Positions 9,273 to 41,564 of a stretch of DNA of 64,000 nucleotides are shown in pieces. The stretch's first letter is position 1. Every line of letters starts with the position of its first letter. The notes below the pieces were generated by a model, which had not been told where the DNA came from, did not search any database, and worked only from the letters and a program-made list of their open reading frames with translations. The translations under genes and the position numbers were made by a program. Origin of the DNA: an uncultured Acidobacteriota bacterium (GTDB lineage: Bacteria; Acidobacteriota; Thermoanaerobaculia; UBA5066; Gp7-AA6); the NCBI GenBank assembly GCA_963764715.1, contig CAVXTP010000009.1, positions 1 to 64,000 of the forward strand, written 5' to 3'.

Positions 9273-9288
9273 TGCAGTCCGTGTGCCA
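9273..9288 (-). promoter_or_regulatory. Sigma54 -24/-12 promoter
   Basis: TGGCACACGGACTGCA. Confidence 0.75.
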
Positions 9289-9333: not shown

Positions 9334-9349
9334 TGGCAAGCGGCTTGCT
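9334..9349 (+). promoter_or_regulatory. Sigma54 -24/-12 promoter
   Basis: TGGCAAGCGGCTTGCT. Confidence 0.8.
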
Positions 9350-17785: not shown

Positions 17786-18013
17786 ATGACGGAAGTCCCA
17801 GGGAACGGCGGGCCCGACTCGGAGGAGAAGCTGCGCCGGTTTTTTCACGATGTCGCCACGCCGCTGTCCGGGGTGTCGCTGCACCTCGAGCGCGCCGTGC
17901 GGCTGCACGCCCGCGGCGAGGACCCGGCGGACGCGCTGGCGACCGCGCGGCGCGAGCTCGACCGAGCGTTCGATCTCTTCGAACGCGGCCGCGCCGAGAT
18001 GCTCAAGCCATGA
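17786..18013 (+). CDS. Stand-alone HisKA/DHp-like protein (putative phosphotransferase)
   Basis: LRRFFHDVATPLSGVSLHLE H-box; 75 aa; ATGA overlap with the activator gene. Confidence 0.7.
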   Translation: MTEVPGNGGPDSEEKLRRFFHDVATPLSGVSLHLERAVRLHARGEDPADALATARRELDRAFDLFERGRAEMLKP

Positions 18014-19233
18014 AAGTCCTCATCGTCGAAGACGACGTCTCGACCCGGAAGGGCCTCGAGAGCGCGGTGCGTGACATGGGTCACGAGCCCCGGGCCGTCG
18101 GGACGGCCGGCGAGGCCGCGCGCGCCATCGAGGAGTTCTCGCCCGACGTGCTGATGGTCGACGTGCACCTTCCCGACGGCGACGGAATCGAGGTCTTCCG
18201 CGCGGCCCGCGAATCCGCCCCGGAGCGGGACGGCATCGTGATCACCGGTCAGGCCTCCCTCGACAGCGCGGTCGAGGCGCTGCGCGCGGGCGTCTCCGAC
18301 TATCTACTCAAGCCGATCCGTCCAGCGCAGCTCGAGGTCGTGTTCCAGCGCCTCGCCGCGCGGCGCACGCTCGAAAGCGAAGTCGACACCCTCCGCGCCG
18401 AGCTCCAGGAGACGGGCAAGCTCGGAGAGATGATCGGCAAGTCCGCCGCGATGGCCCGCGTGTTCGAAGCCGTCCGGCGCGTGGCGCGCTCCTCGGCGCC
18501 CGTCCTGATCACCGGCCAGAGCGGGAGCGGCAAGGAGGTCGTGGCCCGGACGATCCATCGCCTCTCCCGTCGCGCGTCGGCGCCGTTCGTGGCCTTCAAC
18601 TGCGGGGCGATCTCGCCGACGCTCATCGAGAGCGAGCTCTTCGGGCACGAGCGCGGGTCCTTCACCGGCGCGGACAAGCGCCGGGTGGGTTACTTCGAGG
18701 AGTCCAACGGCGGCACGCTGCTGCTGGACGAAATCACGGAGATGGGCGCGGACCTGCAGGTCAAGCTCCTGCGAGTTCTCGAGGCGAAGACCTTTCGGCG
18801 CGTCGGAGGCGCCCAGGACATCCGCGTCGACCTGCGGATCGTGTCGGCGACCAACCGGGATCCGCTGGAGGCGATCAAGGAGGGCAAGCTCCGCGAGGAC
18901 CTCTACTACCGGTTGAACGTCTTTCCGATCTCGCTTCCGCCCCTGACCGATCGCCGCGAGGACATCGCCCTGCTCGCCGAGCATTTCCGGCGGCACATCG
19001 AGGAGCAGGAGAAGGCGGGCGTGAAGGCCTGGGCGCCGGCGGCGCTGAAGCTGCTCGACGCGTATCCGTGGCCGGGCAACGTGCGCGAGCTCCGCAACGT
19101 GGTGCACCGCGCGTACCTGATGACCGAAGGCGACACGATTCGGCCGGAGACCGTCCAGGAGCTCCTCCCCGCCTCGCCCGCCCGCGCGGAGTCGCCCGAG
19201 CGCCCCGCGCGCCGCGCCGCCCGCCGCCGCTGA
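18010..19233 (+). CDS. Sigma54-dependent response regulator (REC-AAA+) lacking the C-terminal HTH
   Basis: Receiver, [46 protein letters not shown], then a short tail and stop. Confidence 0.93.
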   Translation: MKVLIVEDDVSTRKGLESAVRDMGHEPRAVGTAGEAARAIEEFSPDVLMVDVHLPDGDGIEVFRAARESAPERDGIVITGQASLDSAVEALRAGVSDYLLKPIRPAQLEVVFQRLAARRTLESEVDTLRAELQETGKLGEMIGKSAAMARVFEAVRRVARSSAPVLITGQSGSGKEVVARTIHRLSRRASAPFVAFNCGAISPTLIESELFGHERGSFTGADKRRVGYFEESNGGTLLLDEITEMGADLQVKLLRVLEAKTFRRVGGAQDIRVDLRIVSATNRDPLEAIKEGKLREDLYYRLNVFPISLPPLTDRREDIALLAEHFRRHIEEQEKAGVKAWAPAALKLLDAYPWPGNVRELRNVVHRAYLMTEGDTIRPETVQELLPASPARAESPERPARRAARRR

Positions 19234-21677: not shown

Positions 21678-21724
21678 GACTCTTCGATCGGTACCGGCGG
21701 GGCTGATCGCTCGACCCGGAGCGG

Positions 21725-24340
21725 TCAGCCCCGTTTTTCGTTTTGTTCCACGGTGGCCGCGGTCGAGCCCAGCCGGTCGAGAACCGAGACGAGCCGGTCG
21801 AGGTTGAGGGGCTTGACCAGGTGCTCGGCGAATCCGAGCTTTCGGCTGCGCTCGAGATCGGACTCCATTCCGTAGCCGCTGAGGACGACGCCGCGAAGGT
21901 TCGGGTGCGCGGCCTTGAGCCCGGCGAAGAGCTCGAGCCCGCTGCCATCCGGCAGCCCGACGTCCGTGACCAGGATCTCCGCCGGCTGCTCCCGGAAGGC
22001 GCGGCGGGCGGCCTCGACGCCGTCGGCGAGCCTCACGTCGAACCCGGCCTCTTCGAGCAGCTCGCGGACGGCGAGACCCGAGTCGACGTCGTCTTCGACC
22101 AGCAGGACCGGGAGGCGCCCCCGCGTCTCGAGCCGGTGCCGGCCTGGTCCCTCGGGCGCCACGCCCGCCGGGCGCTCGACGGTCGTTGCGAGCTCGATCG
22201 AGAACGTTGCCCCGCGGCTCTCGCCCTCGCTTTCGGCGGAAATCGATCCGCCGTGCAGCTCGACCAGATTGCGGGCGATCGCGAGGCCGAGGCCGAGGCC
22301 GCCGGCGCGGCGCCTGGCCGTGGCGTCTCCCTGCTCGAAGGCGTCGAAGATCCGGGCCAGCAGGTCCTTCCGGATTCCCTGGCCCGTGTCGCGGACGAGG
22401 ACGCGGATGCGACCGGGGGACGCATTCTCGGAGCGGAGCGTGACGCGTCCGCCCGGCGGCGTGAACTTCGCAGAGTTCTGCAGGAGGTTCCAGAACACCT
22501 GCTGGAGCCGGGCCCCGTCACACATGCAGAAGTGATCGGACGCCTCGAGCTCGGACACGAGGTCGACCCCGCGGCGGAAGAACTCGCTCCGCGCGCTCTG
22601 GACGACGCTTCGGAGGACGTCGTGGAGGTCGAGCGGCTCGCGGTCGAGCTCGATCTTGCCGGCCGAGATGCGGGTCAGGTCGAGCAGGTCGTCGATCAGC
22701 CGGGCCTCGAGCTCCACGTTGCGCCGGATCATCGCGAGCGACTCGGCCATGCCGGGGCCGAGGTCGGGCCGCCGCTCGAGGCGATGGACCGAGGCCATGA
22801 CCGGCGTCAGGGGAGTCCGGAGCTCGTGGGACAGGGTCGCGAGGAAGCGGTCCTTCGCGGCGCTCGCCTCCTCGGCGCGGTGGCGGGCTTCCTCGAGCTC
22901 CCGGCTCTGGCGGCGTCGCTCGGTGACGTCGCGGATCAGGCGCGAGAGACCGATGATCCGTCCCGCCGAGTCCCGGATCGCCGAGAGGTTGACGACGACG
23001 TCGATCCAGCGTCCGTCCCGGGTGCGGCGGCGCGCGTCGAACTCGTCGATCCGCCGGCCGGCCAGGAGCTCCGCGGTGAGGCGGGGAGTCGGGTCCGGCG
23101 TGTCGGGCGGCGCGAGCTCGACCATCTTGCGGCCGATCATCTCGGCGGCCGTGAATCCGAAGAGCGCCTCCGCGCCCGGGTTCCAGTCGGTGATGACGTT
23201 GTCGACCGTCTCGGCCACGATGGCGTATTCGACCGACGCCGCGATCGCGGCGAGCCGCTGCGCCTCCCGTTCCGCCCTGCGCTGGGCCGCTATGTCGCGG
23301 AACACCAGGACCACGCCGTCGAGCCGGCCGCGCGCGTCCCGGATCGGCGCCGCGCTGTCGGCGACGGGCGTCTCGGTCCCGTCGCGCGCGAGCAGGAGAG
23401 TGTGGCTGGCGAGGCCCACGATCTCGCCCTGTCCGATGACCCGCCGCACGGGGCTCTCCATCGGCGAACGGCTCGTCTCCTCGACGATGCGGAAGATCTC
23501 TTCCACCGGGCGGCCCGAGGCCTCGGCGAGGCTCCAGCCGGTCAGCCGCTCCGCGACCGCGTTGAGGAAGGTGACCCGGCCGTCGGCGTCGGTCGCGAGG
23601 ACCGCGTCCCCGATGCTCCTCAGCGTCGTTCGCAGCCGCTGCTCGCTCTGCCGAAGCGCGGCCTGCGCCCGGGCCCGGGCGAGTTGGTCTTTCCGTACCA
23701 CGAAGACGAACGCGGCGAAGAGCGCGAGCGACGCGAGGCTCCCGGCGACCGCGGCGGCGAGGACGCGACGGGAGGCGGCGACGGCCTGCCGGGAGCGCTC
23801 CTCCAGAAGCGCCGTCTCCTCGCTCCGCATCGCCGCGAGCGACACCCGGATCCGGTCCATCGTGTTCCGGCCGAGCCCGGTCTGGACTCTCTGGAGGGCC
23901 GCGGCCCGGTCGCCGGAGGAGAAGAGCCGGATCGTCTCGGCGAGCTCCGCGAGCTTGGCCTCGACGAGGACCTCGACGTCGCCGAGGCGCTTTTGCCACG
24001 CGGGACGGCCCGCCGACAGCGCGTGAAGCCGGGGAAGGTGGGTGCGGACGGCTGCGACTCCCTGTTCGTAGGTCCCCAGATAGCCCGCATCCCCGGTCAG
24101 CAGGTAACCGCGCTGGCCGGTCTCGGCGTCCTTCAACGCGGAAAGGGCCTCCTCGAGCTCTCCGAGGCCGCTCCACGCCGACTCCACCCGGTTCGTCTGC
24201 TCCGCGAGATTCCGGGTGTTGAGGATCACGACCCAGCCGAAAGCGCTGACGGCCGCGACGACCAGGGTCGCGCCGACCGCGATCCGGCGGGATCCCGGGG
24301 GAATCGAGCCGACAGCCAAGGTCCCTCGATTCTGCATCAA
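21725..24340 (-). CDS. CHASE3-PAS-PAS hybrid histidine kinase
   Basis: DAETGQRGYLLTG CHASE3 motif, two PAS domains, SHELRTPL, C-terminal receiver. Confidence 0.95.
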   Translation of the reverse strand: MMQNRGTLAVGSIPPGSRRIAVGATLVVAAVSAFGWVVILNTRNLAEQTNRVESAWSGLGELEEALSALKDAETGQRGYLLTGDAGYLGTYEQGVAAVRTHLPRLHALSAGRPAWQKRLGDVEVLVEAKLAELAETIRLFSSGDRAAALQRVQTGLGRNTMDRIRVSLAAMRSEETALLEERSRQAVAASRRVLAAAVAGSLASLALFAAFVFVVRKDQLARARAQAALRQSEQRLRTTLRSIGDAVLATDADGRVTFLNAVAERLTGWSLAEASGRPVEEIFRIVEETSRSPMESPVRRVIGQGEIVGLASHTLLLARDGTETPVADSAAPIRDARGRLDGVVLVFRDIAAQRRAEREAQRLAAIAASVEYAIVAETVDNVITDWNPGAEALFGFTAAEMIGRKMVELAPPDTPDPTPRLTAELLAGRRIDEFDARRRTRDGRWIDVVVNLSAIRDSAGRIIGLSRLIRDVTERRRQSRELEEARHRAEEASAAKDRFLATLSHELRTPLTPVMASVHRLERRPDLGPGMAESLAMIRRNVELEARLIDDLLDLTRISAGKIELDREPLDLHDVLRSVVQSARSEFFRRGVDLVSELEASDHFCMCDGARLQQVFWNLLQNSAKFTPPGGRVTLRSENASPGRIRVLVRDTGQGIRKDLLARIFDAFEQGDATARRRAGGLGLGLAIARNLVELHGGSISAESEGESRGATFSIELATTVERPAGVAPEGPGRHRLETRGRLPVLLVEDDVDSGLAVRELLEEAGFDVRLADGVEAARRAFREQPAEILVTDVGLPDGSGLELFAGLKAAHPNLRGVVLSGYGMESDLERSRKLGFAEHLVKPLNLDRLVSVLDRLGSTAATVEQNEKRG

Positions 24341-25920: not shown

Positions 25921-26421
25921 TCAGGCGCGCGAGGACTTCTTCGGCGCGGGGGCCTTCGCCTTGCTCCGCTCACGCGCTTCCTCGATCGAGTGGGACTCGA
26001 GCACGTCGCCCTGCTTCGACGCGATCCGGGCGAGCTTGGAGAAGTGCCGGTGCAGCACCTCGATCTCCTGCTCGTTGAGGTTCTCGACGTCGATCAGGTG
26101 ATTGCTCGCGCCCTGCATCGCGGCGACGATTTCGTTCAGCTTGAGGTGGATGGCCTTGGACTCCTTGTTCTGCGCCCTCTGGATCAGGAAGACCATCAGG
26201 AAGGTCACGATCGTCGTGCCGGTGTTGATGACGAGCTGCCAGGTGTCCGAGTAGCCGAAGATCGGGCCCGTGAGGGCCCAGGCGAGGATGATCGCCGCGG
26301 CCACTCCGAACGCCGAGGAGCTCCCGGCCCACTGGGTCGCCGCGAGGGACAGCGTCTCGAGCATCTCCCCGGTGCGCGACCGGCGCTCCCCGCCGCCCGT
26401 GGCGGAACGGCGGCCGCTCAT
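25921..26421 (-). CDS. Low-affinity iron permease (Fet4-like) family protein
   Basis: GPIFGYSDTWQLVINTGTTIVTFLMVFLIQ..AIHLKLNE. Confidence 0.93.
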   Translation of the reverse strand: MSGRRSATGGGERRSRTGEMLETLSLAATQWAGSSSAFGVAAAIILAWALTGPIFGYSDTWQLVINTGTTIVTFLMVFLIQRAQNKESKAIHLKLNEIVAAMQGASNHLIDVENLNEQEIEVLHRHFSKLARIASKQGDVLESHSIEEARERSKAKAPAPKKSSRA

Positions 26422-26912
26422 GACGCGGCTCGCACGCGATCCGGGCCCGCGGCCGGAGCCGGAGTGTCCTCGAGGACCCCGACCCGGTGCTCGTAAGCGA
26501 GCTTTCCGCCGATCCAGCCTCCGGTCCCGAGCAGCGCGAAGCCGAGCAGCGCCAGGCCGAACACGGCCGGCCAGCGGGAGGGCGGGAGGGCCGCCGCGTT
26601 GCGGCGCAGGAAGAAGCTCGAGGCGTAGAGGATGCAGGCCGAGAAGTTGACGACCGCGTGGACGGTCGCGAGGCGGAACGCGCGGCTGCTCATCCGGACG
26701 CCGAGATAGTCCACGGCGCCGAAGACCGCCGCGAGAATCGCGAAGATCAGACCGATGCCGATGCACGTGAACGAAAGGTCGTACCAGAACGGGTCCTCCG
26801 GGCTGACGGTGTGGAGCACGTCGCCCGCGAACGCGATCACGAACGCCCCGATCGGGACGGGTACGAGCAGCGGATGGATCGGGTGGTTTCCGATCGCGGC
26901 CTTGCTCTTCAT
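26418..26912 (-). CDS. DUF2231 membrane protein
   Basis: HPIHPLLVPVPIG..GAVDY..HAVVN..GGWIGGKLAY. Confidence 0.92.
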   Translation of the reverse strand: MKSKAAIGNHPIHPLLVPVPIGAFVIAFAGDVLHTVSPEDPFWYDLSFTCIGIGLIFAILAAVFGAVDYLGVRMSSRAFRLATVHAVVNFSACILYASSFFLRRNAAALPPSRWPAVFGLALLGFALLGTGGWIGGKLAYEHRVGVLEDTPAPAAGPDRVRAAS

Positions 26913-26934
26913 GGCAACCTCCCGAGGGGAGGTG

Positions 26935-26950
26935 TGCAACAGGGGTGCCA
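26935..26950 (-). promoter_or_regulatory. Sigma54 -24/-12 promoter
   Basis: TGGCACCCCTGTTGCA. Confidence 0.82.
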
Positions 26951-27034
26951 CGCGGGGAGGACGGCGATCCTGCTCCGGCGGCGGGTCGTTCCCGCCGCTC
27001 CGGACGGGCGCGAGCGTCGACCGTCCATCGCCGG

Positions 27035-27050
27035 TGGCACCGGGATTGCT
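27035..27050 (+). promoter_or_regulatory. Sigma54 -24/-12 promoter
   Basis: TGGCACCGGGATTGCT; predicted +1 at 27061. Confidence 0.82.
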
Positions 27051-27060
27051 ACACCCAGGA

Positions 27061-27190
27061 AGCAAGGTTCCGTGGAAACTCGAACCGAGCCCTCCAAGAC
27101 ATCCCGCCCCACTCGGACCCGCCCCTTCGGGGGCGGCAGTCCCTTCCCCGGATAGGGGACCGGGCGTGCGGGTTCGCGACGGATCCTGCT
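27061..27190 (+). ncRNA. Candidate ~130-nt structured sigma54-dependent RNA
   Basis: 5' AGCAAGGTTCCGT pairs with 3' ACGGATCCTGCT; nested CGAACC/GGTTCG; cUUCGg hairpin; starts exactly at the predicted +1. Confidence 0.6.
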
Positions 27191-27244
27191 CGACGGCGCA
27201 ACCGCCCGTGGAAGAAAAACTTCCTCTCGCGCAGCGCCACCGGC

Positions 27245-27260
27245 TGGCATGGTGGATGCA
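27245..27260 (+). promoter_or_regulatory. Sigma54 -24/-12 promoter
   Basis: TGGCATGGTGGATGCA. Confidence 0.75.
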
Positions 27261-27284
27261 ACGAGCCTCGTCGGGAGGATCGTC

Positions 27285-27878
27285 ATGAAAAGGGAGCAGG
27301 TGAACGAGCTTTTGCTGCAGGCCCTCGAGACCGAGCTCGGCGGCGTCCAGGTCTACACGAACGCCGTCCGGTGCGCGGTCAACGAGGACCTGCGTGAGGA
27401 ATGGGAGAAGTACCTCGAGCAGACCACCAACCACGTCGAGATCCTGAAGGACGTCTTCGGGAAGCTCGGCCTCGACCCGGATGCCCAGACGCCGGGGCGG
27501 CAGATCGTCCGCCACACGGGCGAATCGCTCGTGCAGGCCATGAAGATGGCGAAGCAGGCGGGCGATCCCAACGCCGCCCAGATCGTGGCTGCGGAGTGCG
27601 TCGTCCTCGCGGAGACCAAGGACCACCTCAACTGGGAGCTGATCGGCGCCGTCGCCGAGAAGGGCGCCGGCAAGAACAAGGAAGTCCTCAAGGCGGCCTG
27701 CGACGAGGTCGAGGAGCAGGAGGACGAGCACCTGTACCACACGACGGGATGGTGCCGGGAGCTCTGGATCGAGTCGCTCGGGATGCCCGCGGTCCTTCCT
27801 CCTCCCGAAGAGGAGAAGGAGGTCAAGACCGCGATCGGCGCCGCCCGCGCCAAGCAATCGCGCGAGGAGCTTCTGTGA
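27285..27878 (+). CDS. Ferritin-like / DUF892-type stress protein
   Basis: QALETELGG..QTTNH..AETKDHLNW..EQEDEHL. Confidence 0.88.
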   Translation: MKREQVNELLLQALETELGGVQVYTNAVRCAVNEDLREEWEKYLEQTTNHVEILKDVFGKLGLDPDAQTPGRQIVRHTGESLVQAMKMAKQAGDPNAAQIVAAECVVLAETKDHLNWELIGAVAEKGAGKNKEVLKAACDEVEEQEDEHLYHTTGWCRELWIESLGMPAVLPPPEEEKEVKTAIGAARAKQSREELL

Positions 27879-28414
27879 ACGACGCGCGCGGCCGGACGGA
27901 GGAGAAGCTCGAGCGCCTGTACGAGCTCGTCCAGGACATCAAGATCGCCATGCTGACGACGCGGCGCCGCGACGGCTCGCTCGTCTCCCGGCCCATGGCG
28001 ACGCAGAGGCGCGCCGACGGCGCGCATTTCTGGTTCGTCACGGCCCGGGGGGTTCCGAAGCTCGACGAGATCGCGGTCGATCCGAACGTCAACCTCGCCT
28101 ACCTGCGCCCCAACGGCCGGGAGTGGGTTTCCGTCTCGGGCGTCGCGCGGATCAGCCGCGCTCGCGCGAAGATCCGGGAGCTCTACGAGCCCGACTGGAA
28201 AATCTGGTTCCCGGACGAGGGCGGCGCGCGCAACGGCGGCCCCGAGGATCCCCGCATGCTGCTCCTGGGAGTCGAGGCCCGGACGGCCCACTTCCTGACG
28301 ACCGACAAGCCGGCGCCCGTCGTGCTCTTCGAGTACGTCAAGGGCCTCGTCACGCGCCGGATGCCGGAGATCGGCGAGGTCGAGACGGTCTCGGCGGGCG
28401 AGCTCCATGACTGA
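27875..28414 (+). CDS. Pyridoxamine 5'-phosphate oxidase-like general stress protein
   Basis: IKIAMLTT..LVSRPMAT..WVSVSG..WFP..GPEDP. Confidence 0.9.
   Translation: MNDARGRTEEKLERLYELVQDIKIAMLTTRRRDGSLVSRPMATQRRADGAHFWFVTARGVPKLDEIAVDPNVNLAYLRPNGREWVSVSGVARISRARAKIRELYEPDWKIWFPDEGGARNGGPEDPRMLLLGVEARTAHFLTTDKPAPVVLFEYVKGLVTRRMPEIGEVETVSAGELHD

Positions 28415-40138: not shown

Positions 40139-41564
<1,426 letters not shown>

Follow-up and report, generated by a model that had tools for sequence, protein, structure and literature searches.

What, if anything, is encoded in the intergenic region at positions 26913-27284 of the window (the whole stretch of 64,000 nucleotides of Acidobacteriota DNA analysed here), which has a DUF2231 gene on the minus strand on one side and a DUF892, or ferritin-like, gene on the plus strand on the other? 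A sequence-only reading of this DNA had proposed a structured RNA of about 130 nucleotides (nt), transcribed from a sigma-54 promoter of its own. That finding stands, but in a smaller and simpler form than first described: positions 27061 to ~27148 of the plus strand are best explained, with a probability of about one in two, as the gene of a predicted non-coding, sigma-54-dependent small regulatory RNA that would act in trans through its exposed parts. Unexpectedly, the related sequences of sister genera appear to be messenger RNAs (mRNAs) for small proteins. The element is composed of the following parts.

27035-27050, plus strand: sigma-54 promoter of the RNA, TGGCAC-CGGGA-TTGCT (-24/-12), TGGCACCGGGATTGCT, an exact match to the consensus
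27061-27148, plus strand: predicted small RNA of ~88 nt, with its 5' end taken from promoter geometry and its 3' end approximate (27143-27152)
27063-27087, plus strand: nearly invariant 5' domain, CAAGGUUCCGUGGAAACUCGAACCG, identity 0.91 over 37 orthologues
27066-27070 and 27082-27086, plus strand: stem-loop 1 (SL1), a 5-bp stem of GGUUC and GAACC, with alternative stems at the same place in some relatives
27072-27155, plus strand: 27-codon open reading frame (ORF), GUG...UAG, starting 4 nt after AAGG and judged not to be conserved in the genus
27088-27114, plus strand: variable C-rich linker with CCCUCC (27090-27095) and UCCCGCCCC (27102-27110), motifs of the CCCNCC type; identity 0.65, with 1-2-nt indels
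27115-27142 (core 27119-27136), plus strand: GC-rich hairpin GGAC-CCGCCCC-UUCG-GGGGCGG-ca-GUCC, identity 0.89

The promoter is the firmest of these features. The predicted start of transcription (+1) falls at 27061 when 12 nt are counted on from the C of the -12 GC, in agreement with the sequence-only reading. The promoter is found 12-14 nt ahead of the conserved block in all 46 full-length unique homologues. Among the first 18 orthologues, a TGGC-N8-TGC promoter precedes the conserved CAAGG by the same 12-14 nt in every case, and a TGGCAC-N5-TTGCT sequence lies at the right distance in all 11 further or weaker hits of a model whose start is past the promoter.

The extent of the transcribed unit is set by its conservation. 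A DNA search in 40 relatives, a tally that includes one unpublished genome, recovered the block in 17 other genomes of the genus at 77-91% identity, covering only query positions ~109-245, with a core at 27062-27143 of the window. All 18 aligned sequences share a common layout: the promoter, a variable spacer of 12-14 nt, the almost invariant CAAGGUUCYGUGGAA(N)ACUCGAACC, ~30 variable, C-rich nt that differ by indels of 1-2 nt, and the hairpin GGAC-CCGCCCC-UUCG-GGGGCGG-nn-GUCC, past which the sequences are unalignable. Over 37 orthologues, identity to the window is highest in the 5' domain (0.91) and the hairpin (0.89), intermediate in the promoter (0.77) and the linker (0.65), and low upstream (0.30) and in the spacer (0.32); past the hairpin it falls to 0.39 at 27149-27191 and 0.22 beyond. 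Conservation begins at +3 of the predicted transcript and ends just past the hairpin; the unit under constraint is therefore 27035-27148, the promoter and ~88 transcribed bases, and the proposed size of ~130 nt is not upheld. The best match in the source genome to R1, a covariance model of the 88 nt whose hits rest on sequence and on the hairpin (the 3' arm of SL1 is one column off), spans 27061-27148 at 98.2 bits. It is the only copy, and no paralogue of the RNA is present in its own genome. R1 matches 37 of the 44 genomes of the genus, nearly always once, including 18 of the 20 of good quality; this 88-nt form of the window's genus is referred to here as type A.

The same profile decides which of the proposed helices survive. 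All of them can be drawn, and all are present in the minimum free energy (MFE) structure of 27061-27192. However, because identity falls past the hairpin, the partners of the closing stem, of the nested CGAACC/GGUUCG and GCCC/GGGC helices and of the GUCCCUU/AGGGGAC helix are unconserved. Pairing of the first 15 nt with the 75 nt past the hairpin is no better than in shuffled sequences in the window (fraction 0.135) and reaches 0.05 in only five of 36 orthologues, at differing positions, whilst a second hairpin follows the conserved one in one of 37. The closing stem, the two nested helices and the GUCCCUU/AGGGGAC helix are accordingly dropped. The CCGCCCC-UUCG-GGGGCGG hairpin is the only proposed helix that is conserved, and it is extended by GGAC/GUCC to 27115-27142. 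This hairpin folds alone at -21.5 kcal/mol, and its cells are paired at 97-99.6% in an alignment of 38 sequences.

Covariation offers limited further guidance. Within the genus the stems are near-invariant (97.9% of 605 cells pair), and since both are almost without change, covariation is not measurable there. In one lineage, four sequences have GGGCU/AGCCC at the SL1 site, making five pairs with a shift, and each of them folds in this way alone; in one further genome the SL1 stem is extended to GGUUCGG/CCGAGCC (z = -4.2). The alignment pair counts understate pairing in the four divergent rows, as the models held a sequence-based register. Few events lie behind these alternative stems, which are suggestive. 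Of the covariation to which the sequence-only reading had looked for a check, the alternative SL1 stems in five sequences are found, but only a single pair changes on both sides.

Homology searches identify no known relative. Rfam 15 gives no match at gathering thresholds in the whole window, and at E-values up to 10 only chance-level matches of 10-20 bits, against thresholds of 45-218, are returned. ARAGORN detects no transfer RNA (tRNA) or transfer-messenger RNA (tmRNA) genes in 26000-28000. The earlier judgement that the element is not assignable to tRNA, signal recognition particle RNA, 6S RNA or a known ribozyme is thus supported, and the RNA is a new family, absent from Rfam, of a known kind. 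Full-text literature searches, judged by titles and the starts of abstracts, found no paper on a regulatory RNA in Thermoanaerobaculia and none on a sigma-54-dependent small RNA (sRNA) in Acidobacteria.

The RNA gene lies in an island of sigma-54 promoters. Thirteen sigma-54 sites with at most one mismatch are found in the 64-kilobase (kb) window, where 0.45 would be expected; that number was not attained in any of 100 shuffles. Genome-wide there are 46 near-consensus sites, 13 of them in the window, and four exact sites, three of them in the window. The sites span 3507-36759 and, by position, precede genes for an AI-2E-type transporter, a hemerythrin-domain protein, a PAS protein, Ku, a DUF1328 protein and a BON protein. 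Further sites precede DUF2231 and the low-affinity iron permease, the RNA, and DUF892, the last with two mismatches. An Fe/Mn superoxide dismutase (SOD) gene is also among the island genes. The source genome (4.36 Mb, 70% GC, 96.8% complete) encodes RpoN and Hfq, together with ~13 strong matches to enhancer-binding proteins, two of which are inside the window. This island looks like a general stress regulon run by sigma-54, and the cluster of such promoters ahead of stress-type genes bears out the stress context in which the RNA had been placed. The set of BON, DUF1328, DUF892, SOD, Ku and hemerythrin proteins resembles the RpoS- or SigB-type general stress regulons of other phyla, a likeness which suggests that sigma-54 fills the general-stress role here. 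The neighbours that matter for what follows are these.

26418-26912, minus strand: DUF2231 gene (Pfam, E = 6e-31)
26935-26950, minus strand: divergent sigma-54 promoter of the DUF2231 and iron-permease genes, an exact match to the consensus
27245-27260, plus strand: sigma-54-like promoter of the DUF892 gene, TGGCAT-GGTGG-ATGCA (TGGCAT-N5-ATGCA), read from the sequence
27285-27878, plus strand: DUF892 (ferritin-like) gene, a weak Pfam match
17902-19233, within the island: NtrC-type response regulator with a sigma-54 activation domain
21725-24340, within the island: CHASE3-PAS hybrid kinase

In the divergent gene group, Pfam also assigns Iron_permease (low-affinity) alongside DUF2231.

How would such an RNA work? 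In the proposed mechanism an enhancer-binding protein activates, and sigma-54 RNA polymerase starts transcription at ~27061; the candidate activator is the response regulator at 17902-19233, acting with the hybrid kinase at 21725-24340. As the candidate is well bounded and has a clear promoter, its induction signal could be traced through this two-component system of the island. Transcripts would end, at least in part, after the UUCG-capped hairpin at 27115-27142, which is presumed to be a terminator or a 3' stabiliser. The RNA would then act in trans through its invariant 5' end and SL1 loop (27063-27087) and through the CCCNCC motifs of the linker, all of them probably exposed. The linker is predicted by folding to be single-stranded and is a candidate pairing region, which could pair with G-rich or Shine-Dalgarno (SD) regions of target mRNAs, possibly with Hfq as partner protein. 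On this proposal the RNA may serve as the repressing arm of an otherwise activator-only sigma-54 regulon. A different mode of action, titration of CsrA/RsmA, was considered and rejected: no match to CsrA was found in the 96.8% complete source genome, and only one GGA lies in a loop, that of SL1.

A number of observations weigh against an independent, trans-acting RNA, including those on downstream genes and on translation given further below. The folds are unexceptional: the 132-nt fold has z = -1.64, with 13 of 200 shuffles folding as well (z = -0.52 for the opposite strand), the 88-nt fold has z = -1.09, no better than shuffles, and SL1 is absent from the MFE structure of the full 88 nt. Two-sided change is confined to one pair (four cells, one lineage), in agreement with an alignment based on R2, a second model built from the promoter and SL1, and a one-base shift of the 3' arm is needed for the remaining pairs in this lineage to fit. 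The hairpin has no U-tract: of the 8 nt that follow, two are T in the window and between 1 and 6, mostly 2-3, in the 37 orthologues. A terminator scan skips this hairpin, yet flags a canonical terminator at 21696-21735. The fourth base of CCCNCC varies, so a strict anti-SD reading suits only some of the sequences. Finally, RNAduplex energies are no better than those of shuffled RNAs, and no target is therefore named: against 9141 candidate start regions, the first 58 nt give a mean of -32.9, compared with -33.4 to -33.9 for three shuffled RNAs, and the linker by itself gives -20.7, compared with -19.4 to -22.5. Long perfect complements in the genome are restricted to palindrome-type matches to the hairpin and chance-level matches of 12-16 nt, and by eye no co-variation of the linker motif with the DUF2231 leader was seen.

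The missing U-tract leads to the main rival explanation, that the element is a sigma-54-driven 5' leader or attenuator: a long transcript would run through the hairpin, the 88 nt would control read-through or mRNA stability, and the short RNA would be a by-product. The nearest downstream gene is indeed co-oriented in 31 of 36 loci (opposite in two, not called in three, with gene calls for these neighbour counts coming from a rough GC3-based ORF filter), and in ten loci a Cls/PLD-like gene follows close behind with no sigma-54 site between it and the RNA. Co-orientation, the lack of a U-tract and these Cls-like genes together mean that read-through may matter. Nevertheless, the downstream genes belong to at least nine unrelated families (Cls/PLD-like ten, DUF892 eight, permease-like five, two pairs and four singletons) behind unconserved spacers, and synteny is instead kept with the upstream divergent genes. 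Moreover, where DUF892 follows the RNA, a sigma-54-like promoter lies between them, in the window and in all eight loci, ~14 nt before the SD of the gene, in line with the separate promoter at 27245 that the sequence-only reading had given to the next gene. The varied downstream families and the promoters of DUF892 itself speak for an independent unit, and the element occurs once, unlike a cassette placed in front of several genes. Some read-through is plausible, and a leader, though considered unlikely, carries more weight than any other rival. An in-frame fusion of the GUG of the RNA with the downstream Cls-like ORF occurs in three of ten loci, which is chance level, and was rejected. As a separate observation, the Cls/PLD-like gene of these ten genomes has no ATG, GTG or TTG near its first membrane helix, and in three sequences a CTG was seen by eye at the homologous spot.

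The nearly invariant 5' domain can also be read as a translation start. In a second rival explanation the element is a translated small ORF, encoding a small protein or leader peptide from GUG 27072, and the 5' domain is its ribosome-binding site (RBS) and first codons. Consistent with this, a start codon (GUG, AUG or UUG) lies four bases after AAGG in 41 of 46 homologues, and the 12-nt leader is laid out as in the sigma-54-driven DUF2231 and DUF892 genes. Despite this, the reading frame drifts within the genus. The distance from start to hairpin in type A is 41-48 nt, distributed over the mod-3 classes as 17:16:4. Its ORFs range from 9 to >52 codons with no common stop, and the hairpin is read in all three frames, as RTRPFGGG, PDPPLRGR or SGPAPSGA depending on species. 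The five homologues without a start codon have UCA (four) or GAG (one) in its place, and a 1-nt indel within the invariant CUCGAACC context, GGAA(N)ACUCGAACC, shifts the frame and leaves the bases unchanged. The invariance of the 5' domain spans all three codon positions. In the window the stop, at 27153-27155, lies past the hairpin, so that a transcript ending at the hairpin would have no stop codon. Frame drift, the lack of a shared stop, the indels and the position of the stop argue that the 27-codon ORF is not the conserved feature here; codon-level conservation, which the sequence-only reading had named as a finding that would refute it, is absent within the genus. As judged from the sequences, there is no coding constraint on the RNA within the window's genus.

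This conclusion does not extend to all relatives of the RNA. In a sample of the order, R1 matches are restricted to one family, made up of uncultured soil Acidobacteria (35 of 80 genomes; 0 of 63 and 0 of 7 in two other families), whilst R2 matches 70 of 105 genomes and nine of the 12 genera of the family, a tally that includes two unpublished genomes with weak matches (E = 0.018 and 0.031). When all species representatives were scanned for the exact pattern, 108 matches were obtained. The promoter is in place in 40, and the 31 of them with titles listed are all Acidobacteriota or Thermoanaerobaculia metagenome-assembled genomes; the 68 matches without a promoter are scattered over other taxa, in mostly coding-looking contexts. 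In addition to type A, two further architectures can be distinguished, neither of which has an Rfam match. C-rich motifs of the same type occur in both. Type B (two genera, nine sequences) shares the 5' domain and continues into a longer 3' part, whose stems change, by eye, on both sides between sequences (for example GAGGUC/GACCUC, GAGGC/GCCUC and GAAGGC/GCCUU). Its neighbours are again those of the island: iron permease and BON genes are divergent from it, and SOD and DUF2231 genes lie within a few kb. Type B was also noted to run for >170 nt through several hairpins. Type C (six sister genera, 20 sequences) consists of a sigma-54 promoter, an 8-10-nt leader with AAGG or ACGG, an AUG and C-rich motifs, with a hairpin of other stem sequences at the place of the type A hairpin and a highly conserved tail, UAGG ... 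CCCACC ... GGCC-N4-GGCC-GAUCCGUCCGGCGAAAGCCGGGCGGACGCCC. A g9 homologue (CAAGGUAAUGGAACUCGA...), which has part of the 5' domain, forms a bridge between type A and type C at their 5' ends. No type C copy is present in the window's genome.

In type C the situation is reversed. Its ORF of 28-33 codons starts at a conserved AUG in all 20 sequences and ends at a conserved UAG in 19. The segments between its anchors change only in threes (15/18/21/24, 21/24 and 22/25), whereas a control segment past the stop, of 24-29 nt, falls into all mod-3 classes (9:6:5). There is, however, no third-position excess (66/54/53 differences), the ratio of synonymous to non-synonymous changes is 29/108 compared with 34/99 and 30/106 in the other frames, and neither the type C ORFs nor the window's 27-codon ORF match a Pfam or NCBIfam family. 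From its sequences we read type C as translated into a fast-evolving peptide, with the 3' untranslated region (UTR) as its best-conserved part. As a reading frame is kept in sister genera, the family is not purely non-coding. For the window's genus, with the frame lost and no shared stop, a translated small ORF is improbable as the explanation of the element. The 3' UTR of type C was separately noted to contain a C-rich motif, the GGCC-N4-GGCC hairpin and a GAAA-capped hairpin.

Loss of the frame in the window's genus, its retention in sister genera and the absence of a type C copy from the genome would be expected of a decaying, functionless remnant of the small-protein gene of the sister genera. 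Decay would not, however, be so patterned: identities of 0.91 in the 5' domain and 0.89 in the hairpin are far above the 0.22-0.39 of the flanks, even though the DUF2231 proteins of the genus are 55-92% identical, and the promoter is kept in every copy. A remnant is accordingly a very poor prospect. A more favourable view of the same history is that of a switch from mRNA to riboregulator, in which a non-coding or bifunctional RNA was born from a small-protein gene and became the RNA arm of the Acidobacteria sigma-54 general-stress regulon. The starting point would be a gene under sigma-54 control that encodes a peptide of 28-33 residues, has a structured 3' UTR and stays in frame in six genera. 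The frame would then have been lost in the window's genus, and apparently also in the two type B genera, with the RBS-like 5' end, the C-rich motifs and the hairpin retained under strong constraint. This scenario is put forward tentatively, as less likely than not. The frame-conserved and frame-free homologues constitute a natural test case for the interconversion of small-protein genes and sRNAs.

The divergent promoter at 26935-26950 and the one at 27245 raise a last rival explanation, that the element acts as DNA, as an enhancer (upstream activating sequence) or operator for the DUF2231 and DUF892 promoters, with its inverted repeats as protein sites. Both GGTTC-N11-GAACC and CCGCCCC-TTCG-GGGGCGG are palindromic. 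They precede the DUF2231 start point by ~110-210 bp and the 27245 promoter by ~110-180 bp, distances at which enhancer-binding proteins usually act. In 29 of 48 loci the 500 nt upstream of the RNA contain a divergent sigma-54 promoter, and in 16 of 48 a same-strand sigma-54 site lies within 600 nt downstream, against a background of ~0.0045 sites per 600 nt per strand. The distance to the divergent promoter nevertheless varies from 41 to 446 nt, and there is none within 500 nt in the other 19 loci, whereas the RNA's own promoter always lies 12-14 nt from the conserved block. Conservation of the loop, which is not palindromic, equals that of the arms; an indel of 1 nt in the loop (11 or 12 nt long) alters half-site spacing, and both arms change together in one lineage. 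A search for k-mers shared upstream of the 13 island promoters, as a possible enhancer, found none above the level of random segments. Varying spacing to the neighbours, fixed spacing to its own promoter and the conserved non-palindromic loop make a DNA-level role unlikely, and of the explanations weighed here it is given the least credence.

With a small regulatory RNA as the preferred reading, the closest known analogues would be the Pxr and Qrr RNAs, which share a sigma-54 promoter, a lineage-restricted distribution and stem-loops; membership in either family is not supported. Pxr of Myxococcus xanthus and relatives is described as a 108-nt RNA (PMC5568312, PMC5684412), and the likeness lies in a ~100-nt RNA of a GC-rich soil bacterium restricted to one lineage. 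Pxr adjoins nla19 and an NADH dehydrogenase gene and has three stem-loops, whereas the present RNA, of another phylum, lies in a stress island and has two, along with coding relatives. No Rfam 15 match is found over the RNA body at E = 0.1, among 4227 models that may not include Pxr. Transcription of the Vibrio Qrr sRNAs requires sigma-54 and LuxO (bioRxiv 10.1101/2021.07.01.450815). A small RNA with a sigma-54 promoter is common to both systems; the present RNA differs in being single-copy, in its lack of a U-tract and in having no Rfam match. Qrr RNAs occur in several copies per genome with canonical U-tailed terminators, depend on an enhancer-binding protein of the response-regulator type and repress the translation of their targets.

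Two other groups of RNAs invite comparison. RsaE/RoxS of Firmicutes and the anti-SD-motif sRNAs of alpha-proteobacteria (rhizobia), such as NfeR1 and AbcR, are similar in having several C-rich motifs that are predicted to be unpaired. RsaE reportedly acts via direct interactions with G-rich target sites. This is an analogy, not a homology, and here the motif is CCCNCC with a variable fourth base. SgrS/SgrT and RNAIII/hld are dual-function or coding-derived sRNAs, and they resemble the present family in combining a small ORF with conserved RNA parts, type C having an ORF of 28-33 codons and a better-conserved structured 3' UTR. They differ in that the window's genus has not maintained the ORF and that dual function is here a prediction.

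Several minor features of the surrounding DNA were also noted. The leaders of DUF2231 and DUF892 are only ~12-15 nt long (26912-26950 on the minus strand and 27245-27287 on the plus strand), with just GGGAGG before the start codon, and the AAGG-N4-GUG of the RNA is laid out like them. Midway between the two divergent sigma-54 promoters, at 26975-27003, lies an inverted repeat, CCGGCGGCGGG-TCGTT-CCCGCCGCTCCGG, which may serve both as an enhancer site; its Rfam match to Ms_IGR-4 on the minus strand is weak and at chance level (E = 0.62). The promoters at 9273-9288 and 9334-9349 have a similar CCGGCGGCG word upstream. At 40636-41137 on the minus strand, a second sigma-54 activator domain is matched in two pieces in different frames (profile positions 47-167 and 1-51), and this split may reflect a frameshift or an assembly error. 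Beyond DUF892, an ORF at 27899-28414 on the plus strand encodes what we take, by eye, to resemble a general-stress-protein-26 or pyridoxamine-oxidase-like protein, and a homologue of it lies directly downstream of the RNA in two other genomes.

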